This document shows positions 450-36,028 of a stretch of 47,378 nt of DNA, piece after piece; the first letter of the stretch is position 1; the number at the start of each line of letters is the position of its first letter. The position numbers and the translations under genes are program-made. The notes below the pieces were generated by a model. It worked only from the letters and a program-made list of their open reading frames with translations, did no database searches and had not been told where the DNA came from. The DNA is from an uncultured Syntrophaceae bacterium. GTDB taxonomy: Bacteria > Desulfobacterota > BSN033 > UBA1163. The stretch covers positions 1 to 47,378 of the forward strand of contig CAYMTD010000001.1 in assembly GCA_964393245.1 (NCBI GenBank). The letters run 5' to 3'.

Positions 450-2180
450 ATGGACAGAATCTTCAGAATAAATATGGACAGTCTCAAGGTTTCTGAGGAG
501 AAAGTCAGCGGGGATTATATTGGCCTGGGAGGGCGTGGGTTGACATCTATGGTGGTGAGCAAGGAAGTCCCGCCTCTATGTAATCCGATCGGTCAACATA
601 ACAAACTGGTCATCGCCCCCGGGCTTTTGACGGGGACGACCGCTGCAAATTCGGGGAGGCTTTCCATCGGCGGCAAGAGCCCTTTGACAGGAGGGATCAA
701 GGAGAGCAATGTAGGGGGCACGGCGGCAACCAAATTGGCGCGATTGGGCATTGCTGCCATCATTATCGAAGGGAAGCCGGAGAAGGGAAAGCTTTACGGC
801 CTGGCCGTTAGCAAGGACGGGGCAAAGCTCTTCCCAGCGGATGATTTGAAAGGACTGGGGAACTATGCATTAACAGAGAAACTTCAGGCTAAATATGACA
901 AGAAAGCAGGCATTATCTCCATCGGGCCTGCCGGGGAGATGAAGATGGCAATGGCCAGTATCGCTGTCACCAGTACCAACGGGACCCCTTCTCGTCATGC
1001 AGGAAGGGGAGGCATGGGTGCGGTGATGGGATCAAAAGGCTTGAAGGCGATTGTCATCGATGACACAGGAGGTGAAAAGGTCCCTATAAAGAACCCGGAC
1101 CTTTTCAAGGAGGCTTCTCAAAAGTTTGTGAAGGCATTGCGGGAACATCCCGTGACCAGCCAGGGGCTCCCAAAGTATGGCACTAATATTCTGGCAGCGA
1201 TCATTAATGAGGCCGGAGGGTATCCGACCCGGAATTTCTCCTCGGGACGATTTGAGGGGACTGACAAGATTAGTGGAGAGACGATGCATCAGATTATTTC
1301 CAAGAGGGGAGGCAAGACGACCCATTCCGGATGCACGACCTGCATCATTCAGTGTTCGAATGAGTACGTGGATGAAAAAGGCAAATATATCACCTCAGCC
1401 CTTGAATATGAGACGGTCTGGGCCAACGGGGCCAACTGTGGGATTGACGACCTGGATGCGATTGCCCGTATCGACCGCCTTTGCGACGATTATGGGTTTG
1501 ATACGATTGAAATGGGCTGCACGATAGGGGTGGCCATGGAAGCGGGGGTCAAGGAGTTTGGAGACGCCGAAGGTGCGATCCAGTTGATCCATGAGGCCGG
1601 AAAGGGAACGCCTCTGGGAAGGATTATTGGAAACGGCGCTGCTTTCACAGGGAAGGCTTTTGGCGTGACCCGGGTTCCGGTGGTGAAAAACCAGGGAATG
1701 CCCGCTTATGAGCCCCGGGCCATTCAGGGGATCGGCGTGACCTATGCGACTTCGACCATGGGCGCCGACCATACAGCTGGATACGCTACAGCCACAAATA
1801 TTATGAAAGTCGGGGGATATGTCGATCCATTGAAACCTGATGGCCAGATGGCGTTGTCCCAGAATCTTCAGATTACTACTGCCGCCGTTGATTCAACAGG
1901 CCTCTGCCTGTTTATTGCATTTCCAGCACTGGATATGCCGGAATGCTTTGCGGGTGTGATTGGAATGCTCAATGGTCGGTACGGATGGAATCTAACGGCT
2001 GACGACGTGGCCGCCCTCGGAAAGAAGATTCTGAAGGTGGAGAGAGATTTTAATGAGCGGGCAGGCTTTTCCAATCTGGACGACCGGCTGCCGGAGTTTT
2101 TTAAAGAGGAGAAACTCCCTCCCCATAATCTAACTTTTTTGGTTCCCGATGTTGACCTGGATAAGGTCTTTAAGTTTTAA
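450..2180 (+). CDS. aor: aldehyde:ferredoxin oxidoreductase family tungstopterin enzyme (AOR1)
   Basis: 576 aa. AOR N-terminal domain (GLGGRGL..., GGKSPLTGG). CxxCxxxC cluster motif (GCTTCIIQC), LEYE, GADH, and a distal Cys in DSTGLCLF. SD AAGGAAAGGAGG at 431-442. Confidence 0.9.
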   Translation: MDRIFRINMDSLKVSEEKVSGDYIGLGGRGLTSMVVSKEVPPLCNPIGQHNKLVIAPGLLTGTTAANSGRLSIGGKSPLTGGIKESNVGGTAATKLARLGIAAIIIEGKPEKGKLYGLAVSKDGAKLFPADDLKGLGNYALTEKLQAKYDKKAGIISIGPAGEMKMAMASIAVTSTNGTPSRHAGRGGMGAVMGSKGLKAIVIDDTGGEKVPIKNPDLFKEASQKFVKALREHPVTSQGLPKYGTNILAAIINEAGGYPTRNFSSGRFEGTDKISGETMHQIISKRGGKTTHSGCTTCIIQCSNEYVDEKGKYITSALEYETVWANGANCGIDDLDAIARIDRLCDDYGFDTIEMGCTIGVAMEAGVKEFGDAEGAIQLIHEAGKGTPLGRIIGNGAAFTGKAFGVTRVPVVKNQGMPAYEPRAIQGIGVTYATSTMGADHTAGYATATNIMKVGGYVDPLKPDGQMALSQNLQITTAAVDSTGLCLFIAFPALDMPECFAGVIGMLNGRYGWNLTADDVAALGKKILKVERDFNERAGFSNLDDRLPEFFKEEKLPPHNLTFLVPDVDLDKVFKF

Positions 2181-2197
2181 CGCTTCGCAGTCGCGGG

Positions 2198-2225
2198 GGG
2201 GGCGGGAGAGTTGAGTCCCGCCCCC
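2198..2225 (+). terminator. GC-rich stem-loop after AOR1 (possible terminator or attenuator)
   Basis: GGGGGCGGGA (2198-2207) / TCCCGCCCCC (2216-2225), followed by a T-rich but interrupted tract. Confidence 0.4.
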
Positions 2226-2252
2226 TGTTTCGTCCTTTAAGAATAGGAATAG

Positions 2253-2546
2253 ATGCAGGTTACTGTTAAATTACACGCCTCCCTCAGACCGTATGGAAGG
2301 AGCGATTCCAACGACGGCCTCTTTCCACTTGAGGCAGCCGAGAAAGCAACCGTGCATGAGGTCATACGGGAACTGGGAATTCCTCCTGAAAAAGTGAGGA
2401 TGATTTTACTCAATGGGAGGGGTGTTGATTTTGATAGCATTTTATCCAACGGCGACCGGATTGCTATTTTTCCGCCGGAAATGGCGTTTAATATGTATGT
2501 CGCCATCTCCTTCCGGAGAGATTTAAATCATCAGAAAAAATCTTGA
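2253..2546 (+). CDS. beta-grasp (MoaD/ThiS/Ub-like) small protein lacking a C-terminal diglycine
   Basis: 97 aa. Pattern ...ATVHEVIRELGIPPEKVRMILLNGRGVDFDSILSNGDRIAIFPPE.. is typical of MoaD/ThiS or Ub-Mut7C-type beta-grasp domains. The tail continues about 20 aa with no GG. Confidence 0.65.
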   Translation: MQVTVKLHASLRPYGRSDSNDGLFPLEAAEKATVHEVIRELGIPPEKVRMILLNGRGVDFDSILSNGDRIAIFPPEMAFNMYVAISFRRDLNHQKKS

Positions 2547-2558
2547 GTGTGAGGGGAA

Positions 2559-3020
2559 TTGGTAACGGTCTATGTTAAGTTGACGGGAAGTTTTCTCCCA
2601 TATGGTTCTCCAGAACAGCCGGGGCCCATTGAAATTACCCTCAAGAATGGAGCCACGATCCAGGAGGCCATTCAAGCGTTGGGGATACCCAAGGAAAGAG
2701 TCAAGCTGATCTTTGTTAATCACAGGGGGGCCTTTTTGGATCAGCTGCTCAAAGATGGAGACAGGGTTTCCCTTTTTCCGGCAGAATATCCGGTTTTCGC
2801 TGATTGGAAGGGATCTATTCTTAGGAAAGCACATGACGATGAGATGATCGAGGAGGGGAGAATGAAAAAGTGGAAGTGCTCAATTTGCGACTATATCTAT
2901 GACCCATCAAAGGGAGATCCTGATAACGGAGTGAAACCTGGAACGGCCTTTGAGGCAATTCCAGATGACTGGGTTTGCCCCACTTGCGGTGCCGGAAAGG
3001 ATATGTTTGAACCCCAGTAG
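2559..3020 (+). CDS. beta-grasp domain protein reading in frame into a complete rubredoxin (fusion or read-through)
   Basis: TTG start. Residues 1-80 are a paralogue of 2253..2546. The C-terminal 52 aa, [15 protein letters not shown]...[18 protein letters not shown], is a canonical rubredoxin (CxxC...CPxCG). An internal SD GAGGAGGGG (2850-2858) plus in-frame ATG at 2862 could give a free 52-aa rubredoxin. Confidence 0.7.
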
Positions 3021-10588: not shown

Positions 10589-10779
10589 TGGTCTTGTGAA
10601 AAGTCGCGATTTGTTTGTCACCCTGAACCAGGTCCTGAACCATGCCCTGAAACAAGTTCAGGGTCTAACGAATTCAGGATCTAGCGATTTCAGGGTCTGG
10701 TAGTCCTGGAATTTGTGAGATGCTGAACCAGGTTCAGCATGACATTTTTCCTGGCTTTCGAATTTTTACGAATTCATCA
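10586..10779. mobile_element. MITE-like element, TGATG...CATCA family, long variant
   Basis: Left end TGATGGTCTTGTGAAAAGTC, right end GAATTTTTACGAATTCATCA. The interior is built of hairpin modules (GTCACCCTGAACCAGG..., GCTGAACCAGGTTCAGCATGAC). Confidence 0.6.
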
Positions 10780-28230: not shown

Positions 28231-29376
28231 ATGAATGATATCGAACAGATGAGAGAGGGTTGGAGAAAAAAGGCCAGGGAAGTGGCCAAGAATATTGTCG
28301 CCCCACGGGCAGCGGAGATCGATGCAACGGGAGAATTTGCCTGGGATATCGTCGACGTCTTCGCGCAGGAAGGATTTTTGAGCCTTATCATCCCGAAAGA
28401 ATATGGGGGAATGGATGGTGACATTACCTCCTTCTGCATGGTGGCCGAAGAGATGGCGATCTACTGCGCCTCCTCCTCACTCCTCGTAATCGTTCAAGCG
28501 GTTGGAACAATGCCTCTTGTCTTGGGAGGATCCGAGGAACTGAAGAAAAAGTTTCTACCGAAATTGTCCAAGGAGAAGGGTTTGATCTGTTTCTGCATTA
28601 CGGAACCTGAGGCAGGATCCGATGCGGCTTCGATCCGAACCAAAGCCATTCTGAGCGGCGACCACTATGTCCTGAACGGCAGGAAATGTTTTATCACGAA
28701 TGGTGGCGTCTCAGACCTTTACACGGTTTTTGCCGTGACGAGTCATGAAAAGAAGATGGAGGGGATCACAGGTTTTGTGATCGAAAAGGGGACACCGGGT
28801 CTTTCTGTTGGGAAGACAGAAGAAAAAATGGGAATCCGAGGCTCGAATACCACGGAAGTGGTCTTGGAAGATGTGAAGGTGCCAATCTCCCAACGGATCG
28901 GAGATGAGGGGGTGGGTTGGTGGCTTATGATGAGAACGTTGAATCGTTCGAGGCCAGCCATCGGTGCTCAGGCCGTGGGATTGGCACAAGGGGCTTTAAA
29001 CTATCTCGTTGAAAAAGGCAGAGAGAAGGGATGGTTTAGGAGCAAGAACGGGGCGTTAGGAGTTCAATCAAAGTTAGCCGAACTCGCCGTGGAGATTGAG
29101 GCCGCCAGAGCCTTGGTTTACAAATCTGCGAGAATGATGGACGAAAAGGTCAAAGGGACCCCGGTCCAGATGTTTTCAGCCATGTCGAAATACTTTGCCT
29201 CTGATATTGCCATGAAAGTAACGACCGAAGCCGTCCAGATCCTGGAATGGGAAGGACTCACGAGAAATCATCCGGTTGAACGAATGATGAGAGATGCAAA
29301 GGTGATCCAGATCTTCGAGGGAACAAATCAGGTTCAACGGATGGTAGTGGCCCACACGTTGCTCAAAGGAAGGTAA
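28231..29376 (+). CDS. acyl-CoA dehydrogenase (ACAD-4)
   Basis: 381 aa. CFCITEPEAGSD, FITNG, IQIFEGTNQVQ. Confidence 0.85.
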   Translation: MNDIEQMREGWRKKAREVAKNIVAPRAAEIDATGEFAWDIVDVFAQEGFLSLIIPKEYGGMDGDITSFCMVAEEMAIYCASSSLLVIVQAVGTMPLVLGGSEELKKKFLPKLSKEKGLICFCITEPEAGSDAASIRTKAILSGDHYVLNGRKCFITNGGVSDLYTVFAVTSHEKKMEGITGFVIEKGTPGLSVGKTEEKMGIRGSNTTEVVLEDVKVPISQRIGDEGVGWWLMMRTLNRSRPAIGAQAVGLAQGALNYLVEKGREKGWFRSKNGALGVQSKLAELAVEIEAARALVYKSARMMDEKVKGTPVQMFSAMSKYFASDIAMKVTTEAVQILEWEGLTRNHPVERMMRDAKVIQIFEGTNQVQRMVVAHTLLKGR

Positions 29377-29448: not shown

Positions 29449-29464
29449 GTTCACTATTGTGAAC
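29449..29464. promoter_or_regulatory. operator-like palindrome S1 (GTTCAC TATT GTGAAC)
   Basis: Perfect 6-N4-6 inverted repeat. About 45 nt upstream of the -35 of the AOR2 promoter. Confidence 0.55.
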
Positions 29465-29505
29465 CCCACTCGCATAGGAAAATGGTTCAAAAATCAACCT
29501 TACCC

Positions 29506-29534
29506 TTGACAGATGGATAAATGTAGGATATTAG
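29506..29534 (+). promoter_or_regulatory. candidate promoter of the Zn-ribbon/AOR2/ferredoxin operon
   Basis: TTGACA (29506-29511), 17-nt spacer, TATTAG (29529-29534). Confidence 0.45.
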
Positions 29535-29566
29535 TTTGTTATGTCCAAGGTTCAGGATTACTGTCT

Positions 29567-29582
29567 GTTCAGTATTGTGAAC
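29567..29582. promoter_or_regulatory. operator-like palindrome S2 (GTTCAG TATT GTGAAC)
   Basis: One mismatch relative to S1. About 30 nt downstream of the putative -10, in the leader. Confidence 0.55.
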
Positions 29583-29652
29583 ATGATGGGTAGCGGGCGC
29601 GGTCCCGAAACCGAGCGATCATTGTTTCTTGGCATTAAGAAAGGGGGTTGTT

Positions 29653-29934
29653 ATGGGAAACGAGAAACAAGGCCTTTCAACAGCTGAATCCCTGCGTAAG
29701 ACTCGTACCTATGGCCAGGTGAGGTGCCATAATCCCAGTTGTATGGGAAGAATTACGCCAGAGCCCGGGGCAAAGCAAGTGAAATGTCCCCGTTGTGGTA
29801 TGGAATGGCGTATCGCCTGGGTCAAAGACGGTTTTCCCCGGATCAGAGGTCCCGTATGGGATGTGGACACAAGATTAGCACAAGAGGCATTTGAAAGAAA
29901 AATGAAGGAGGAAAGGAAAGATGGCCCTAAATAG
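29653..29934 (+). CDS. Zn-ribbon miniprotein (93 aa), unknown family
   Basis: SD AAGGGGG then ATG. Cys pairs CHNPSC and CPRC. Basic C-terminus. Its stop overlaps the AOR2 start by 14 nt (translational coupling). Confidence 0.55.
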   Translation: MGNEKQGLSTAESLRKTRTYGQVRCHNPSCMGRITPEPGAKQVKCPRCGMEWRIAWVKDGFPRIRGPVWDVDTRLAQEAFERKMKEERKDGPK

Positions 29935-31861
29935 GAAGATAGCGTACATTGATCTCACCACCGGCAAGATTGAAATCAAGCCTATTCCGATCGAAATCCG
30001 GAAAAAATTCCTGGGAGGCAGGGGGCTGGATGCCTACCTGCTTTACAATCATACGAAAAAAGCGTGTGACCCCCTTGGGCCTGACAATACCTTGATGGTG
30101 AGCGGTGGAATTTTAACTGCCACTTTGGCCTCGGCAACCTCCAGATGCCACGTGATGGCCAAATCTCCGTTGGGAGGGATGTTAGGAAGCTCTAACATGG
30201 GAGGTTTCTTTACTCCTGAGTTAGCCTGGGCAGGGTTTCATCATCTTGTCATCAAGGGCAAGGCGCAAAAACCTGTCTACCTGTGGATCCACAATGGGAA
30301 GATTGAGATCCGCGATGCAAAAAACATTTGGGGAAAAACGGTCACAGACACCCAATGGGCGATCCGAGAGGAGCTAGGGGATGAGGATATCAAGAGTTTG
30401 GTGATCGGTCCGGCGGGGGAAAATCTGGTAAGGTATGCGAATGTGATGACCGGAATCAAGAATTCTGGTGGAAGGACCGGGATGGGAGCAGTCATGGGCT
30501 CAAAAAATTTGAAGGCCGTTGCTGCCCGTGGCACCATGGATATAAAGATCGCCTATCCAAAAGAAGCACTCGAATACAACAAACGCTTTATTGATCAAAT
30601 TACAAGCGCGAAGGTCAACCAGACCCAGGGGGCCCTCGGAACCCCATTCATTTGGGGAGCGACCAACTCCTGGGGCGGGGTTCGAACCAGAAACTTCCAG
30701 TATAACCAGCAGCTCTATTGCGATGAAATCGAGCCGGAATCGATTGATGATAACGCTACAGAAACGATTGGGCCCTACCATATGACGGGTTGCTTCGGTT
30801 GCCAGGTCCACTGCCGGGCTAAGTATAAGATTCCGACCGGACCTTACGCAGGAAAGTATGATGAGGGTCCGGAGTATACTTCCCAGGGTGCTTTTTGCTC
30901 TGAACCAGATATCCCCAGCCTCGAAACCCTATTGACGGCGAATCACTTGGTCGATCAATGGGGGGTGGACAACCTCGAAATCGGAAGCCTCATCTCTTGG
31001 GCGATGGAGCTCTATGAGCTGGGAATTCTCACGAACAAGGAGACCGATGGCTTAGAATTGCGGTTTGGCAGTAGTGAGGCACTGCTGGAGATGATCGAAC
31101 GGATCTGCTTTAGAAAGGGCTGGTTGGGTGATACCTTGGCCGAGGGAGGGATTATTGCCTCTGAGAGAATTGGGAAAGATTCTTTTGACTACCTGATTCA
31201 GGTCAAAGGAGTGAGCAATCTTCACTCTGATGAGCGCGCAACCCCTGCCCTTGCTCTTAATATTGCTACCGCTTCGCGCGGCTCAGACCACTTAAGAAGT
31301 CGACCCGCAATTGATCTATACCATCTGCCCGTGGATGTGCTGAGGAAGATTTACAGTAGCCCGGTTCCCTATGACGGCCCGCTGAGTTCGGAGCATACGG
31401 AATACATCGGCAAGCCATGGCAGGTCTTTTGGCAAGAAAATTGTTATATGGGGGTGGATTGTCTTGGGATCTGTAAGTATCACACGACCTTCCTGGGTGC
31501 AACGCTTCCCAACTTTGAAGACTGGTCTAAAGTGCTTTATTACAATACCGGGCTGGAGCTTACCCCCCGGGAAATCTGGGAGGTTGCTGAGCGGTGCAAT
31601 ATGATGGAGCGGCTCTTCAACCTCCGTGAAGGTTTGAAACGGGAAGATCTTTACAGGGGTGATATGCTCAATCACCGATACTTTGATGAGCCCACCCGAA
31701 GAGGTGCGCCCGACGTTGTCGGCAGGGTGATCGATCGGGAAAAATTCAGGAAGATGGTCGACGAATTCTACGAATATAAGGGCCTTGACCAGAACGGCGT
31801 TCCGAAGCCAGAGACGCTCAAGAGGCTTGGCCTGGATAAGGAACCCTCCCACCTGCTGTAA
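29921..31861 (+). CDS. AOR-family tungstopterin enzyme, long form (AOR2; BamB/WOR5/AorB-like size class)
   Basis: 646 aa. AOR N-domain (FLGGRGLDAYL, KSPLGG), CFGCQVHC cluster motif, GPEY, SRGSDH, distal Cys in DCLGICKY. SD AGGAGG. No Tat signal. Confidence 0.88.
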   Translation: MALNRKIAYIDLTTGKIEIKPIPIEIRKKFLGGRGLDAYLLYNHTKKACDPLGPDNTLMVSGGILTATLASATSRCHVMAKSPLGGMLGSSNMGGFFTPELAWAGFHHLVIKGKAQKPVYLWIHNGKIEIRDAKNIWGKTVTDTQWAIREELGDEDIKSLVIGPAGENLVRYANVMTGIKNSGGRTGMGAVMGSKNLKAVAARGTMDIKIAYPKEALEYNKRFIDQITSAKVNQTQGALGTPFIWGATNSWGGVRTRNFQYNQQLYCDEIEPESIDDNATETIGPYHMTGCFGCQVHCRAKYKIPTGPYAGKYDEGPEYTSQGAFCSEPDIPSLETLLTANHLVDQWGVDNLEIGSLISWAMELYELGILTNKETDGLELRFGSSEALLEMIERICFRKGWLGDTLAEGGIIASERIGKDSFDYLIQVKGVSNLHSDERATPALALNIATASRGSDHLRSRPAIDLYHLPVDVLRKIYSSPVPYDGPLSSEHTEYIGKPWQVFWQENCYMGVDCLGICKYHTTFLGATLPNFEDWSKVLYYNTGLELTPREIWEVAERCNMMERLFNLREGLKREDLYRGDMLNHRYFDEPTRRGAPDVVGRVIDREKFRKMVDEFYEYKGLDQNGVPKPETLKRLGLDKEPSHLL

Positions 31862-31937
31862 CGATATCATCCCCACCGTTGCCATCCCCCCTTGAGGGGG
31901 AGGGGTGGGTGGGGGGTAACGAAAGGAGAACAAGTTA

Positions 31938-32447
31938 ATGGAACCGATGGGTAAAGTTCTTGCGATCAGTCCTGAAAAGTGCACCGGCTGCAGGCTCTGT
32001 GAGCTCGTCTGTTCGGTTTTCCATGATGGCGTATCCAATCCTGCTCGAAGCCGGATAAAAGTTATGAAATGGGAGTCAGAAGGGATCTATGTTCCGATGT
32101 CCTGTCAGCAGTGTCAGGATGCCCCCTGTATGATCGTTTGTCCTGTGAAGGCAATTACCCGCGACGAGTCACTCAGCCGGGTGGTGGTCAATCATGATAT
32201 CTGCATTGGCTGCCGTTCCTGTGTGGCGGTTTGCCCCTTTGGAGCAATGAATTTCAGCGTTATGGATCGAAAGAATTTTAAGTGCGATCTCTGTGACGGA
32301 GATCCGCAGTGCGTTCGTTTCTGTGAAGTTAAAGCAGTGGATTATGTGGATGCGGACCGGGTAAGTATTGCCAAGAAGAGGGCAGCGGCTGAAAAGATCA
32401 CTGCCGCTCAAAGGCAGGCGATCGCCTTAGAGTCAGAATCACGCTAA
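31938..32447 (+). CDS. four-cluster [4Fe-4S] ferredoxin subunit (BamC/AorA/DmsB-like, FCP-1)
   Basis: 169 aa with four Cys motifs: CTGCRLCELVC, CQQCQDAPCMIVCP, CIGCRSCVAVCP, CDLCDGDPQCVRFC. No signal peptide. Confidence 0.85.
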   Translation: MEPMGKVLAISPEKCTGCRLCELVCSVFHDGVSNPARSRIKVMKWESEGIYVPMSCQQCQDAPCMIVCPVKAITRDESLSRVVVNHDICIGCRSCVAVCPFGAMNFSVMDRKNFKCDLCDGDPQCVRFCEVKAVDYVDADRVSIAKKRAAAEKITAAQRQAIALESESR

Positions 32448-32533
32448 GGTGAATTAGTTTCGTCTGCGAATAGAAAGGTTTTGTAGGCGCAACCTTTAGG
32501 TTGCGTAATATCCAATGGTCTGCGATTTGTACA

Positions 32534-32562
32534 GGGGCTGGTTTGATGCCAGCCCCTTTTCT
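32534..32562 (+). terminator. intrinsic terminator of the AOR2 operon
   Basis: GGGGCTGG (32534-32541) / CCAGCCCC (32549-32556) followed by TTTTCTT. Confidence 0.65.
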
Positions 32563-32601
32563 TATGTCCTCCGTTTTCTAAATCCCAAGTTAGACAATTT
32601 T

Positions 32602-32736
32602 TGATGAAGTCGTAAAAAGTCGTCATTCCCGTGAAAACGGGAATCCAGGGAATTCTAACTACATGAAAATACTGGATTCCTGCTTCCGCAGGAATGACAA
32701 AAAATCCCTTTTCAGACTTTTTACGAAACCATCATT
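32602..32736. mobile_element. 135-bp MITE-like element, copy A
   Basis: Identical base for base to 45344-45478 by direct reading. Imperfect terminal inverted repeats TGATGAAGTCGTAAAAAGTC / GACTTTTTACGAAACCATCA. Internal hairpin GTCATTCCCGTGAAAACGGGAATCCAG ... CTGGATTCCTGCTTCCGCAGGAATGAC. Confidence 0.75.
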
Positions 32737-32847
32737 TTTTTAAAATCATTTGTAGCCGCAGGACTTCGGCGTGAGCTCAGTCGAACGCTTTAGCCTGCGT
32801 ATAAGACGCAACCTAAAGGTTGCGGCTACAGAGGTTCATGTGTCGTC

Positions 32848-33120
32848 TTATCCTCCTGCAAGCATCACAAGAAGGTTGATTTCGTCCCCATCCTTGACGG
32901 GTTTGGTGAGTTCATTGGGGTAGGCGGTTACATTATTTACAAAAATCTCAACGACATTGAGCAGTTTGTCCTTCTTGGCAAACAACGCCTTCTCCATCCC
33001 AGGGTACTGTTTGACCAATTGGTTCAGACACTCCCCAACCGTATTTCCCTCTACGATGACCATATCCTGGCCGTTGGTAAATCGGCGGTGTGTGATGTGA
33101 ATATGTACCTTGACAGGCAT
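32848..33120 (-). CDS. MoaD-family beta-grasp sulfur-carrier-like protein with C-terminal GG
   Basis: 90 aa ending ...KDGDEINLLVMLAGG*, a canonical MoaD/SAMP-type tail. Confidence 0.75.
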   Translation of the reverse strand: MPVKVHIHITHRRFTNGQDMVIVEGNTVGECLNQLVKQYPGMEKALFAKKDKLLNVVEIFVNNVTAYPNELTKPVKDGDEINLLVMLAGG

Positions 33121-33139
33121 GTCTTATTTTTTTCCATGG

Positions 33140-33167
33140 GTAGGGAACGCATATATGCGTTCCCTAC
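33140..33167. promoter_or_regulatory. perfect 28-bp palindrome between FCP-2 and the MoaD-like gene
   Basis: GTAGGGAACGCATA|TATGCGTTCCCTAC, 14-bp perfect arms with no loop. Confidence 0.5.
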
Positions 33168-33182
33168 AGAGGATTCCACTCG

Positions 33183-33668
33183 CTACCTCAACTGTTTTAT
33201 CGATTCGATAAATCTGTTGGCGGCTTCTCGCTTCTTGGTCACCTCAATCCTATCGGCATCGACATAAGTGACTGCCTTCGGTTCACAGAAGGCGACGCAC
33301 TTAGGATCCCCATCACAAAAGTCGCACTTCACCGTCACCCGATCCTGAACGTCAAAGAATGGGTGACCAAAAGGACAGGCGACGACACAAGTCCTGCACC
33401 CGATGCATAGATTTTTGTCGATCACTACCCGGTTATTGTTTTCGGGTTCCCGATGACAGGCCTTGGTCGGACAGACCTCAACGCAGTAGGCCTTTTCACA
33501 GTGATTGCAGATCATAGGAAGGTAGATCCCCACATGCTCCCATTTCACCACCCTGATACGGGACCGGCTCGGATTGCTTGCGCCAGTGTGCTGCACGGAA
33601 CAGACCAGCTCACAGAGGCGGCATCCGGTGCACTTTTGCTGATCGACCACTAATACCTTTTGCTCCAT
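33183..33668 (-). CDS. four-cluster [4Fe-4S] ferredoxin (FCP-2), paralogue of 31938..32447
   Basis: 161 aa. CTGCRLCELVC, CNHCEKAYCVEVCP, CIGCRTCVVACP, CDFCDGDPKCVAFC. Collinear with FCP-1 along its whole length. No signal peptide. Confidence 0.85.
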   Translation of the reverse strand: MEQKVLVVDQQKCTGCRLCELVCSVQHTGASNPSRSRIRVVKWEHVGIYLPMICNHCEKAYCVEVCPTKACHREPENNNRVVIDKNLCIGCRTCVVACPFGHPFFDVQDRVTVKCDFCDGDPKCVAFCEPKAVTYVDADRIEVTKKREAANRFIESIKQLR

Positions 33669-33724
33669 TTTAAGCCCCTTTTCCTATAAGGGTTGCGCGA
33701 GAGCGTGAGCCACAAGTGCAATCA

Positions 33725-33855
33725 AAATTCCAAGTTCCAAGCACCAAACTCCAAATAAATTCCAAGCACCAAATTAGAAAAGAAGAAAGTTTTGGTCGTT
33801 TGATGTTGGAATTTGGAGCTTATTTGGAAATTGGGATTTGGTGATTGGTGCTTCA
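33725..33855. repeat. low-complexity CCAAA/TTTGG giant hairpin, same family as 9406-9600
   Basis: ATTCCAAGTTCCAAGCACCAAACTCCAAATAAATTCCAAGCACCAAATT ... TTGGAATTTGGAGCTTATTTGGAAATTGGGATTTGGTGATTGGTGCTT. Confidence 0.65.
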
Positions 33856-33876
33856 TATCCTAATAAACCTTGATCT

Positions 33877-34878
33877 TTACGAATTATGATTTGGATTCTT
33901 AACCAAATCATACTGGATTTCCATCAACCGAATCATCGGAATCCGATCCTTGATACCCGCTTGGAGGACTCCCAGGCGGAGAAAAAAGCCCCCGCAAAGA
34001 AGGAGGACCCCGGCGGTGAAGATCAACGTTATACTTCCGGGGGAGAACGAGGCAATGGCCTCAAGAATCAAAGGAAAGATGAAGCCAAGGAGAACGATTC
34101 CTCCCCAAAAGATCAGTTTCATATCTCCAAACAGAAGAAGACGAACCGAATCCTTTCCCTGTTCGGCGGCTTTATACCTCTGAAAAAGGAAGAAATAAAG
34201 CACCATTCCTTCGAGTACGACGAGAATCTGTTCCCCGCGCATCAAGAATTTAAGCGCCTCACCCTGACTCGAGAGAAGGCCAGTTCCAAGGGTGGAAAGG
34301 ATGATGGCCATGGATCCGGTTGACAGTGCTGAAACCAGAAAGAGCAGCGGAAGAAGATTGGTATTCCATAAGGGGATCGATTTGGTCGCCTTCAAAAGAA
34401 TGCCTGTGTACAGGGCGGTGGCAAATGCAAAGGCGAGGGTGACGACCTCGGGGACAATCCAGAAGGGAGACTCAGCATGGAGCCATTTGAAAGGGAAAGC
34501 AGATTTTGCCAAAAGAACCACTCCCAATACAATGAAAATGGCGAGGATAAGAAAGCCCCGAGCCACCCAAGAGGTTCTTGGGTTCAGACAGGCATATAAG
34601 AATCTCCTCTTGATACCTAGATCTAAAATGAGGAAAGGAGCACCGATGGCGACCAGAAGGGGCCCCCACAAAATAGCGGCTTTTGCAGAGTCGAAGGGCA
34701 ACCCCCAAATCGATAGACCCCTGGTAGGCTGAACAAACCAGTTGAGGAGGGTACCAATCACATAAGCGCCGGCTCCCATTCCCGCAAGATAGAGATAAAT
34801 AGCCGGAATTTCCTTCCATTCTTGTTGAGGCCTGAGACACCTCACGTTTCTTATGGGATAAATAGACTCTTTCCCCAT
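33877..34878 (-). CDS. NrfD/PsrC/DmsC-family polytopic membrane protein (quinone-interacting anchor type)
   Basis: About 333 aa from the ATG at 34878 (MGKESIYP...). WKEIPAIYLYLAGMGAGAY, LDLG.KRRF, SW.ARG, and 8 or more hydrophobic helices are typical of NrfD-like anchors. The longer ORF-track start at 34977 would cover operator S3. Confidence 0.75.
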   Translation of the reverse strand: MGKESIYPIRNVRCLRPQQEWKEIPAIYLYLAGMGAGAYVIGTLLNWFVQPTRGLSIWGLPFDSAKAAILWGPLLVAIGAPFLILDLGIKRRFLYACLNPRTSWVARGFLILAIFIVLGVVLLAKSAFPFKWLHAESPFWIVPEVVTLAFAFATALYTGILLKATKSIPLWNTNLLPLLFLVSALSTGSMAIILSTLGTGLLSSQGEALKFLMRGEQILVVLEGMVLYFFLFQRYKAAEQGKDSVRLLLFGDMKLIFWGGIVLLGFIFPLILEAIASFSPGSITLIFTAGVLLLCGGFFLRLGVLQAGIKDRIPMIRLMEIQYDLVKNPNHNS

Positions 34879-34959
34879 GCTCGTGTTTACATCCCCCTTC
34901 CTGCTGATCTGATGAAGTCTCCCCCTCTCAAAGAGCGAAAGACAAGGCGAAAAGAAAGA

Positions 34960-34975
34960 GTTCTTTAGAGTGAAC
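34960..34975. promoter_or_regulatory. operator-like palindrome S3 (GTTCTT TAGA GTGAAC)
   Basis: Right half-site perfect, left 4/6. Lies 10-25 nt downstream of the putative minus-strand promoter and about 85 nt upstream of the nrfD-like ATG. Confidence 0.45.
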
Positions 34976-34992
34976 AAGCAAGAAGTGACTTA

Positions 34993-35020
34993 ATCATAGC
35001 ATATCTTTTTATCCTGTCAA
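34993..35020 (-). promoter_or_regulatory. candidate promoter of the nrfD-like gene
   Basis: On the minus strand: TTGACA (35020-35015), 16-nt spacer, TATGAT (34998-34993). Confidence 0.4.
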
Positions 35021-35200
35021 GATTTATGGAAAAAAGATTTCCCGACGTCTCATCGAAACCCTTTCCCATGAGATGCTGAACCGAGTTCAGCATAACAGCA
35101 GAGGCCAATTCCATTGTTGCCCTGAACTTGGTTCTGGGTCTGATAGGGAATTGCATTCGCCGTGTGGGCGACGGACTTCAAGAATACTTTAAGGGGTATA

Positions 35201-35229
35201 TTGACAAAAGGAGAAAGAATCTGTTACTT
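35201..35229 (+). promoter_or_regulatory. candidate promoter of the IclR gene
   Basis: TTGACA (35201-35206), 17-nt spacer, weak -10 TTACTT (35224-35229). Confidence 0.35.
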
Positions 35230-35239
35230 TTTGCTAAGA

Positions 35240-35255
35240 GTTCATTATGGTGAAC
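35240..35255. promoter_or_regulatory. operator-like palindrome S4 (GTTCAT TATG GTGAAC)
   Basis: Ends 3 nt before the IclR ATG. Same architecture as S1-S3. Confidence 0.55.
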
Positions 35256-35257
35256 GA

Positions 35258-36028
35258 ATGAAAAAGACGGGTTATTTTGCTCCCTCTGTTCAAAAGGCAT
35301 TCAAGATTCTCCAGACGATTGCGGATTCCCCCTCGGGTTTGGGGGTGAGTGAGCTGGCAAAGAAATTGGGCATGGGAAAAAGCACCGTTCATGGGATTAC
35401 AATGGGGCTTGAGGGCTTGGGAGTCCTCGTTAGAGATCCCGTAGATAAGAGGTTCAATCTTGGATACAGCTTGTTAGAACTGGGCCGAAGAACTTATGTG
35501 AGGATTGAACTCCGGGATGTCGCCAGGGTGCCGATGGAACGATTGATGGAAAGGGTAGGGGAGACGGTCTTCCTGGGGATTCTCAATGGAGACCATGTAA
35601 CCATTTTAGAGGTGGTGGAATCTCATCGTGAGATGAAGATTACCTCACCCCCTGGGACAAAACTCCCGCTGCTCGCCGGAGCAACAGGGAAGGTCTTTCT
35701 TTCTCTGGTTGATGAGAAAAAGGCTAAAGAGATTGTTCTGAAATTAGGCTTGGTCAAATTCACTCCCAAGTCCCTCGTCGATCAAAAAAAGTTTCTCAGA
35801 GAAGTGGAGGAGACGAGAAAAAGAGGCTATGCCATTGACGATGAGGAGTATATGCTCGGGGTCAGAGCGGTTGCAGCCCCCATTCACACGGCTTCCCCTC
35901 CTGTGGCTGCAATTTGGGCGGTGGGATTTACTTCAAGTCTCAACGACCAAAAAATGGACCGAGCGATTTCGGAGATTAAGAAAACCGCTGAGGAAATTAG
36001 CCAGTCGATGAAGAAACACGTTAGCTGA
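35258..36028 (+). CDS. IclR-family transcriptional regulator
   Basis: SVQKAFKILQTIADSPSGLGVSELAKKLGMGKSTVHGI is the IclR wHTH, followed by a C-terminal effector domain. The longer ORF-track start is unlikely because it would cover the promoter and operator. Confidence 0.85.
   Translation: MKKTGYFAPSVQKAFKILQTIADSPSGLGVSELAKKLGMGKSTVHGITMGLEGLGVLVRDPVDKRFNLGYSLLELGRRTYVRIELRDVARVPMERLMERVGETVFLGILNGDHVTILEVVESHREMKITSPPGTKLPLLAGATGKVFLSLVDEKKAKEIVLKLGLVKFTPKSLVDQKKFLREVEETRKRGYAIDDEEYMLGVRAVAAPIHTASPPVAAIWAVGFTSSLNDQKMDRAISEIKKTAEEISQSMKKHVS

Follow-up and report, generated by a model that had tools for sequence, protein, structure and literature searches.

A predicted IclR-family regulon joining a tungsten-type aldehyde oxidoreductase operon and an NrfD-type membrane module in an uncultured Syntrophaceae bacterium

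Described relatives of the regulator and its predicted targets

IclR proteins form dimers and tetramers, and in Escherichia coli IclR autoregulates and uses two boxes at aceBAK, with one box of each target promoter overlapping the core promoter and the other lying upstream. A comparable arrangement is found in the 47,378-bp stretch analyzed here (the window), which comes from an uncultured Syntrophaceae bacterium (assembly GCA_964393245.1, contig CAYMTD010000001.1). Four 16-base palindromes, S1 to S4, lie there in front of three predicted transcription units: the operon of AOR2, a tungsten-type aldehyde:ferredoxin oxidoreductase (AOR); an operon for an NrfD-type membrane module; and iclR, encoding an IclR-family regulator. 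Family, domain architecture, a palindrome of 15-16 bp and predicted self-repression are shared with the E. coli aceBAK/iclR system. In contrast, the half-sites are TGGAAAT-N-ATTTCCA in E. coli and GTTCA-N6-TGAAC here, the targets are the glyoxylate shunt there and a tungsten AOR with an NrfD module here, and the window protein scores 114 bits against the IclR equivalog model, for which the cut-off is 380.

The window regulator (256 aa, 35258..36028, plus strand) belongs to the IclR family by both of its domains. HTH_IclR (PF09339) matches residues 10-61 (E 2.3e-13; 50 bits against a cut-off of 22), and IclR_C (PF01614) matches residues 82-248 (E 2.6e-40). The best-scoring named families are the BhcR/KdgR/PcaR/PcaU/PobR subfamilies, likewise local regulators of catabolic operons that adjoin, and are often divergent from, their targets. 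However, the scores fall far below the curated NCBIfam cut-offs (BhcR 172 against 350, KdgR 133 against 275, PcaR 130 against 285 and AllR 103 against 406, in addition to the IclR model above). Since no named equivalog cut-off is reached, the protein is a member of none of these groups and is placed in an unnamed subfamily. The KdgR box has the opposite half-site arrangement, TGAAAC...GTTTCA. The closest solved structure is that of Thermotoga maritima IclR (TM0065, 1MKM; E 3.6e-37, full-length alignment), which crystallised as dimer/tetramer and serves as the model for one dimer per palindrome and for a tetramer bridging two sites, although the relationship is distant and both the DNA motif and the regulon are different.

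For the enzyme, the AOR of Aromatoleum aromaticum (AorABC, 8C0Z) offers the best parallel. AOR2 corresponds to AorB and the ferredoxin of its operon to AorA, and MoaD-like and MoeB-like genes accompany the enzyme. Unlike that system, the locus encodes no FAD subunit (AorC), its operon is led by a 93-aa open reading frame (ORF), and an NrfD protein and an NrfC-like Fe-S protein are predicted to be co-regulated with it. A tie between a WOR-family enzyme and membrane or respiratory-type subunits is also seen in the Class V membrane WORs (YdhV type; PMC13328260). Class V enzymes (clade 41) are defined by a signal for twin-arginine translocation (Tat) on the small subunit and by a periplasmic location (PMC13328260). 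Here, N-termini were judged by eye, and no twin-arginine leader is visible on AOR2 or on either ferredoxin (which start MEPMGKVLAISPEKCTGC and MEQKVLVVDQQKCTGC); by the same inspection, the mark of Class V, a small Fe-S subunit bearing a Tat signal or a transmembrane domain, is not seen. The word NrfD does not occur in PMC13328260, and aldehyde oxidoreductases are missing from the NrfD-containing complexes listed in a 2021 review (PMC8076601). A full-text literature search for an IclR-AOR regulon or motif found no description of the regulator, the motif or the regulon. In Geobacter metallireducens, induction of 13- to 29-fold on benzoate was reported for the IclR-family gene Gmet_2064, which lies beside Gmet_2065 (4Fe-4S) (PMC1924859). 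In this cultured relative, Gmet_2064/Gmet_2065 could provide a tractable analogue of the window regulator.

Predicted operator sites, promoters and their conservation

A preliminary description of this DNA had listed four palindromes starting at 29449, 29567, 34960 and 35240, and both coordinates and sequences are exactly as given there. The motif, a 16-base palindrome, reads GTTC-N6-GTGAAC in the window, and its core form across genomes is GTTCA-N6-TGAAC. The pattern GTTCNNNNNNGTGAAC has four sites (five strand matches) in the window, where 0.04 are expected, and none of 100 dinucleotide-preserving shuffles reaches five. S1 (29449..29464, GTTCACTATTGTGAAC) is a perfect palindrome and the predicted distal operator of the AOR2 operon, for which S2 (29567..29582, GTTCAGTATTGTGAAC) is the predicted proximal operator. 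S3 (34960..34975, GTTCTTTAGAGTGAAC), in which one half-site carries a conserved mismatch, is the predicted operator of the nrfD operon, and S4 (35240..35255, GTTCATTATGGTGAAC) is the predicted autoregulatory operator; none of the four is assigned a strand. With a position weight matrix trained on 222 sites, all from other genomes, S4 scores 25.5 bits, S1 24.1 bits, and S2 and S3 21.0 bits each. The next-best position in the window reaches 10.5 bits, the same as the median maximum in 100 simulated windows, among which the highest score is 19.3 bits. When up to two mismatches are allowed, only background-level matches are found beyond S1-S4. All four sites are intergenic when judged against Pfam-supported genes, and the other 14 GTGAAC or GTTCAC hexamers in the window are isolated half-sites, every one within a Pfam-supported gene, which bears out what the preliminary description had said of both.

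In a repressor regulon, the operator is expected to overlap or directly follow the core promoter or start, and this is indeed the arrangement at all three predicted promoters. Transcription starts are themselves predicted, and operator positions refer to promoters that are predicted and conserved. For the AOR2 operon, the predicted sigma-70 promoter (29506..29534, plus strand) consists of TTGACA at 29506-29511, a 17-nt spacer and TATTAG at 29529-29534. It was read from the sequence, a simple promoter scan having skipped it (its -10 box ends in G), and the block cccTTGACAaagaaataaatgtagttTATTAAt is kept across orthologues. The predicted nrfD promoter (34993..35020, minus strand) has TTGACA at 35020-35015, a 16-nt spacer and the extended -10 element TGcTATGAT ending at 34993; with 11 of 12 matches plus the TG in the promoter scan, it is nearly invariant among orthologues. 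The predicted iclR promoter (35201..35230, plus strand), also read from the sequence, has TTGACA at 35201-35206 followed, after an 18-nt spacer, by TGtTACTTT, whose -10 box is 35225-35230, and TTGACA-N18-TGGTAyCTT is kept upstream of iclR in orthologues.

Relative to these promoters, S4 begins 9 nt, S3 17 nt and S2 32 nt past the end of the -10 box, so that the earlier placement of these sites just downstream of TTGACA-type promoters holds. They would cover approximately +3 to +18 (S4), +9 to +24 of the minus-strand promoter (S3) and +26 to +41, in the 5' untranslated region (UTR) (S2), whereas S1 stops 41 nt short of the AOR2 -35 box, upstream of it as had been claimed. Counted from the first base of the -35 box to that of the operator, the distance among orthologues is 35-45 nt for the iclR class (mode 38-39; window 39), 44-45 nt for the nrfD class (window 45), and 42 or 51-67 nt for the proximal site of the AOR2 class (window 61). 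This fixed distance between promoter and proximal site fits repression and autoregulation. The likely Shine-Dalgarno sequence, GGTGA, lies within S4, and 2 nt, not the 3 nt first given, separate the end of S4 from the iclR ATG at 35258; the geometry of S4 is conserved in 72 loci and fits the autoregulation that had been suggested for it. At 35247-35261, ATGGTGAACGAATGA inside S4 forms a four-codon mini-ORF (MVNE) whose stop overlaps the iclR ATG. ATGGTGAACGnATGA is kept in many orthologues, and the MVNE mini-ORF may be a mere by-product of the operator sequence.

Operators of a genuine regulon are expected to be kept at orthologous promoters. The comparison set comprises 80 loci (1.11 Mb) from species-representative genomes, retrieved using an alignment of 27 IclR homologues, with the peptide GKSTVHGI as one of the retrieval patterns. 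These are metagenome-assembled genomes (MAGs) of Syntrophorhabdus, Syntrophaceae, other Thermodesulfobacteriota, Desulfobacterales, Acidobacteriota and a few others, and their IclR proteins are 46-76% identical to that of the window. Locus L071 also has a paralogous IclR gene, whose upstream DNA extends past the end of the locus. Across the 80 loci, GTTCA-N6-TGAAC occurs as 136 perfect sites, compared with about 0.6 expected (five Markov-1 simulations gave 0-1 each). No perfect site lies inside a recognised gene, and 131 lie within 400 bp upstream of three gene classes: 66 upstream of iclR, 53 upstream of the 93-aa ORF/AOR2 operon and 12 upstream of other ferredoxin genes, with 5 elsewhere. 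The motif is therefore not found at equal frequency in coding or shuffled DNA. Sites with one mismatch number 147, against about 33 expected.

The conservation extends to all three units, in agreement with the preliminary description, which had assigned them to one putative regulon. A site with at most one mismatch precedes iclR in 72 loci, and 3 further loci are without upstream sequence; nrfD is preceded by a site in 36-39 of 39 loci; and the AOR2 operon has at least one site (the proximal one) in 43 of 49 loci and two, including the distal one, in 39. Core positions of the motif are 96-100% conserved and the flanking DNA is not. Within the 100 nt upstream of iclR, almost every locus has the palindrome right before the start codon, after TTGACA and an extended -10 element, and such sites span MAGs of Thermodesulfobacteriota, Desulfobacterales and Acidobacteriota. 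At nrfD, the site follows the consensus GTTCTTyAtArTGAAC in 36-39 loci, and nearly always in the asymmetric form of S3 (35 loci among the one-mismatch sites). Since the same half-site, GTTCTT instead of GTTCAn, recurs in about 35 genomes, the deviation itself appears to be under selection; perhaps it sets a lower affinity or serves another purpose in the 5' UTR. Because about 70 other uncultured anaerobes have these sites at the corresponding promoters, the sequence comparison points to a real but conventional repressor-operator regulon.

Proposed repression and competing explanations

Operators in these loci are paired, 105-240 bp apart, a second site accompanying the promoter-proximal one. 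Loci of the Syntrophales type have iclR divergent from nrfD, and about 127-134 bp separate the sites. The AOR2 operon has a proximal and a distal site of its own, spaced at 105-121 bp or at 219-240 bp. Where loci are of the Desulfobacterales type, iclR diverges from the AOR2 operon itself and the spacing is about 151 bp. Between the two operators, 9 of 14 long-form AOR2 promoters (loci L010, L018, L021, L023, L028, L034, L035, L041 and L046) have a match to the IHF consensus, WATCAANNNNTTR, as against 0 of 25 short-form ones, which hints at bend-assisted bridging in the long form. The long-form promoters (219-240 bp) also contain a conserved AT-rich insert between the operators, with repeated ATTAC motifs, and this insert may reflect bend-assisted bridging or a second regulator.

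In the window, the distance between S3 and S4 is stretched to 280 bp from the usual ~130 bp by an insertion resembling a repetitive extragenic palindrome (REP). This REP-like element has the core ATGCTGAAC-N3-GTTCAGCAT within a 36-nt imperfect inverted repeat, at 35062-35150 in the nrfD-iclR spacer. A second copy of the core is intergenic at ~10700-10760 (about 10724), and the core also occurs in L009 (9841-9861) and in L012. The element shares TGAAC and GTTCA with the operator, in everted order. The extra 150 bp of spacer were considered as further operators, and this was rejected because they correspond to the REP-like palindrome that is also present at ~10724.

Taken together, these features make it highly probable that the adjacent IclR-family protein represses iclR, the AOR2 operon and the nrfD-ferredoxin-moaD operon through S1-S4 until a ligand releases it. 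One IclR dimer would bind each 16-bp palindrome with its winged helix-turn-helix (HTH) domains, the half-site centres being 11 bp apart. A dimer bound just past the -10 box or start would block open-complex formation or promoter escape and so cause repression. At S4 the regulator would repress its own gene, at S3 the divergent nrfD-ferredoxin-moaD operon, and at S2, together with the upstream S1, the small-ORF-AOR2-ferredoxin operon. Because the sites are paired 105-240 bp apart, an IclR tetramer (a dimer of dimers) may bridge two of them. Release would come from a small molecule bound by the C-terminal IclR domain, and all three units would then be induced together. The main argument for IclR as the binder is that the motif stays with iclR while the neighbouring operon changes, iclR being divergent from nrfD, divergent from AOR2, or near neither of them. 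The system would be of an ordinary type, a local autoregulated IclR-family repressor with palindromic operators, for which the comparative evidence is unusually clean.

Several points nevertheless weigh against this account. The assignment of the sites to the window protein is one that we infer, and the conservation of its recognition helix was discarded as evidence for it because the argument is circular, GKSTVHGI having been used for locus retrieval. A 5-6-5 layout is also typical of CRP/FNR-type factors, and some members of the IclR family are activators. In addition, the 105-240 bp pair spacings lack 10.5-bp periodicity, so the geometry gives looping no support; helical phasing was dropped as an argument for it, and with it goes that backing for the DNA looping the preliminary description had called possible from the upstream position of S1.

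The points on activation and on the binder each lead to an alternative. It is unlikely that one or more of the promoters are activated or dually regulated by IclR, with S1, for example, recruiting RNA polymerase. PobR, PcaU and PcaR types do activate, and S1 is centred near -85 of the predicted start, a position compatible with upstream activation, but the distal site has no fixed position among orthologues, lying about 45 bp upstream of the -35 box in some and about 170 bp in others. Moreover, with -35 and -10 elements so close to consensus (TTGACA; TGnTATGAT), the promoters need no activator, and every promoter has a site over or just past its start point.

It is quite unlikely that the palindromes are real operators for another factor encoded elsewhere, CRP/FNR-type or otherwise dimeric, with iclR merely one of its targets. 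Such a factor would suit a 5-N6-5 inverted repeat, the classical CRP geometry, and the circularity of the HTH-conservation argument removes one objection to it. However, a site directly before iclR in 72 loci, whatever the neighbours, is what an autoregulated local regulator typically shows. The proximal sites follow the -10 box and are not at the CRP/FNR activator positions -41.5 or -61.5, and no gene for a cNMP-binding or other regulator is found among the Pfam-scanned ORFs of the window.

Very improbable is a role of the palindromes as RNA hairpins in the 5' UTRs, acting on stability or translation (S4, for instance, by sequestering the Shine-Dalgarno sequence), instead of as protein-binding DNA. 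S2, S3 and S4 are predicted to be transcribed, and S2 (-10.9 kcal/mol) and S1 (-7.1 kcal/mol) fold better than shuffles. Yet distal sites of the S1 type lie upstream of promoters and would not be transcribed, the half-sites are invariant, without compensatory changes or covariation, and the conserved nrfD mismatch breaks the stem, leaving S3 at -2.7 kcal/mol, no better than shuffles. With weak energies, no covariation and no Rfam family at threshold, this reading was rejected. Finally, it is scarcely credible that S1-S4 are a repetitive extragenic palindrome, a mobile-element end or a chance cluster without regulatory role: the nrfD-iclR spacer and another part of the window do contain a true REP-like palindrome with the pentamers TGAAC and GTTCA, but it is oppositely arranged (TGAAC-N3-GTTCA) and found in only 3 loci, the chance expectation is 0.04 per window, and the conservation of S1-S4 across dozens of genomes, at orthologous promoters and with a constant distance to the -35 box, excludes a repeat-element origin.

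Genes of the predicted regulon and what it may mean

The AOR2 operon follows an acyl-CoA dehydrogenase gene (28231-29376, plus strand; Pfam) and is itself on the plus strand. Its first gene is the 93-aa ORF (29653..29934), which encodes two CxxC pairs (zinc-ribbon-like) and overlaps the AOR2 start by 14 nt. The product has no Pfam, NCBIfam or significant PDB match. It is encoded directly upstream of AOR2 in 49 loci, with 58-84% identity, and may be an unrecognised AOR subunit or maturation factor. AOR2 (646 aa, 29921..31861) belongs to the AOR/WOR family, with Pfam scores of 252 bits for AFOR_N and 324 bits for AFOR_C, as the catalytic subunit, and is 76-94% identical across the fetched loci. 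An identity as BamB, of class II benzoyl-CoA reductase, was rejected: true AORs top the PDB ranking (1AOR at 5.8e-90, then 9MQX and 8C0Z, AorB) and BamB comes last (4Z3W, far lower at 3e-59 and partial). Next is a gene for a poly-[4Fe-4S] ferredoxin subunit of AorA type (169 aa, 31938..32447), whose best PDB match is 8c0z_C, the Fe-S subunit of the Aromatoleum AOR.

On the minus strand, the nrfD operon begins with an NrfD/PsrC-family integral membrane protein (333 aa, 33877..34878; Pfam NrfD 6e-30), 46-73% identical to its orthologues, which support a start at ATG 34878; the TTG-started ORF of the mechanical list would overlap S3. An NrfC/DmsB-like 4x[4Fe-4S] protein (161 aa, 33183..33668; Pfam, NCBIfam) and, as last gene, a small MoaD/ThiS-like sulfur-carrier protein (32848..33120; Pfam ThiS, NCBIfam MoaD family) follow. 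The order in orthologous operons is nrfD-fd-thiF/moeB-moaD, and the presence of MoaD-like and, in orthologues, MoeB/ThiF-like maturation genes fits a functional link to a tungstopterin enzyme. The window operon is without the ThiF/MoeB-like gene, having only a 62-bp gap at 33120-33183 (compare L004, 7322-8083).

Other loci place different operons behind the same kind of site. At L041 (10992-13970), distal and proximal operators precede genes for a 157-aa ferredoxin, a truncated AOR-like protein of 503 aa (AFOR_N plus just a part of AFOR_C) and a protein of 288 aa without a Pfam match. This type of operon is also present in L028, L032, L033, L038, L039 and L046, and is absent from the window. 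In Desulfobacterales-type loci, paired operators stand before a ferredoxin-ThiS-ferredoxin-DUF5981 (MTHFR C-terminal-like)-EutA-like operon that replaces the nrfD operon (L054 10820-14715, L057 2446-6280, L059 2799-5856); by its gene content, it would be a redox or maturation module of another kind, controlled by the same predicted regulator. From the operon types that carry sites elsewhere, the regulon appears to be centred on enzymes of AOR type, together with their electron-transfer partners and cofactor maturation.

Elsewhere in the window are genes for beta-oxidation-type enzymes, a CoA ligase, TRAP transporters, succinate dehydrogenase/fumarate reductase, DHDPS-family and Iso_dh-family proteins and a second AOR, and in the weight-matrix scan none of these genes carries a site. 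The sdh-DHDPS-Iso_dh operon adjoining iclR was accordingly rejected as a regulon member. The same applies to the second AOR gene, AOR1 (450-2180), which has no site and is not an orthologue of the site-bearing AOR-like gene found elsewhere. At 450-3020, AOR1 (576 aa) is followed by a ThiS-rubredoxin fusion (153 aa), and among the fetched loci only L078 contains a close relative of it (45% identity).

Of more interest, as a by-product of this analysis, is the predicted regulatory connection of a cytoplasmic tungsten AOR with an NrfD-type membrane module. The shared regulation suggests, without proving it, an AOR-NrfD electron-transfer unit of a kind that neither PMC13328260 nor PMC8076601 covers. 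A possible, though doubtful, scheme is that a cytoplasmic AorAB-like AOR with its 93-aa partner passes electrons to the NrfC-like Fe-S protein and on to NrfD, forming an aldehyde:menaquinone oxidoreductase (or working in reverse) in syntrophic Thermodesulfobacteriota. If so, the Fe-S module of the NrfD quinone-interacting unit would face the cytoplasm, unlike in known NrfD complexes and in the periplasmic Class V WORs. A physiological role has yet to be assigned to most WOR clades (PMC13328260), and co-regulation is thus among the few handles on their function.

For the family, the analysis gives a precise predicted operator, GTTCA-N6-TGAAC, and a core regulon to an uncharacterised subfamily of IclR proteins, widespread among uncultured Thermodesulfobacteriota, both syntrophic and sulfate-reducing, and among some Acidobacteriota, organisms about whose transcriptional control almost nothing is known. 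The predicted regulon joins a highly conserved tungsten AOR, an NrfD/Fe-S membrane module and pterin-cofactor maturation genes. The motif may be used to find further members in complete MAGs, and the predicted repressor-operator pair could help to identify the inducing metabolite.

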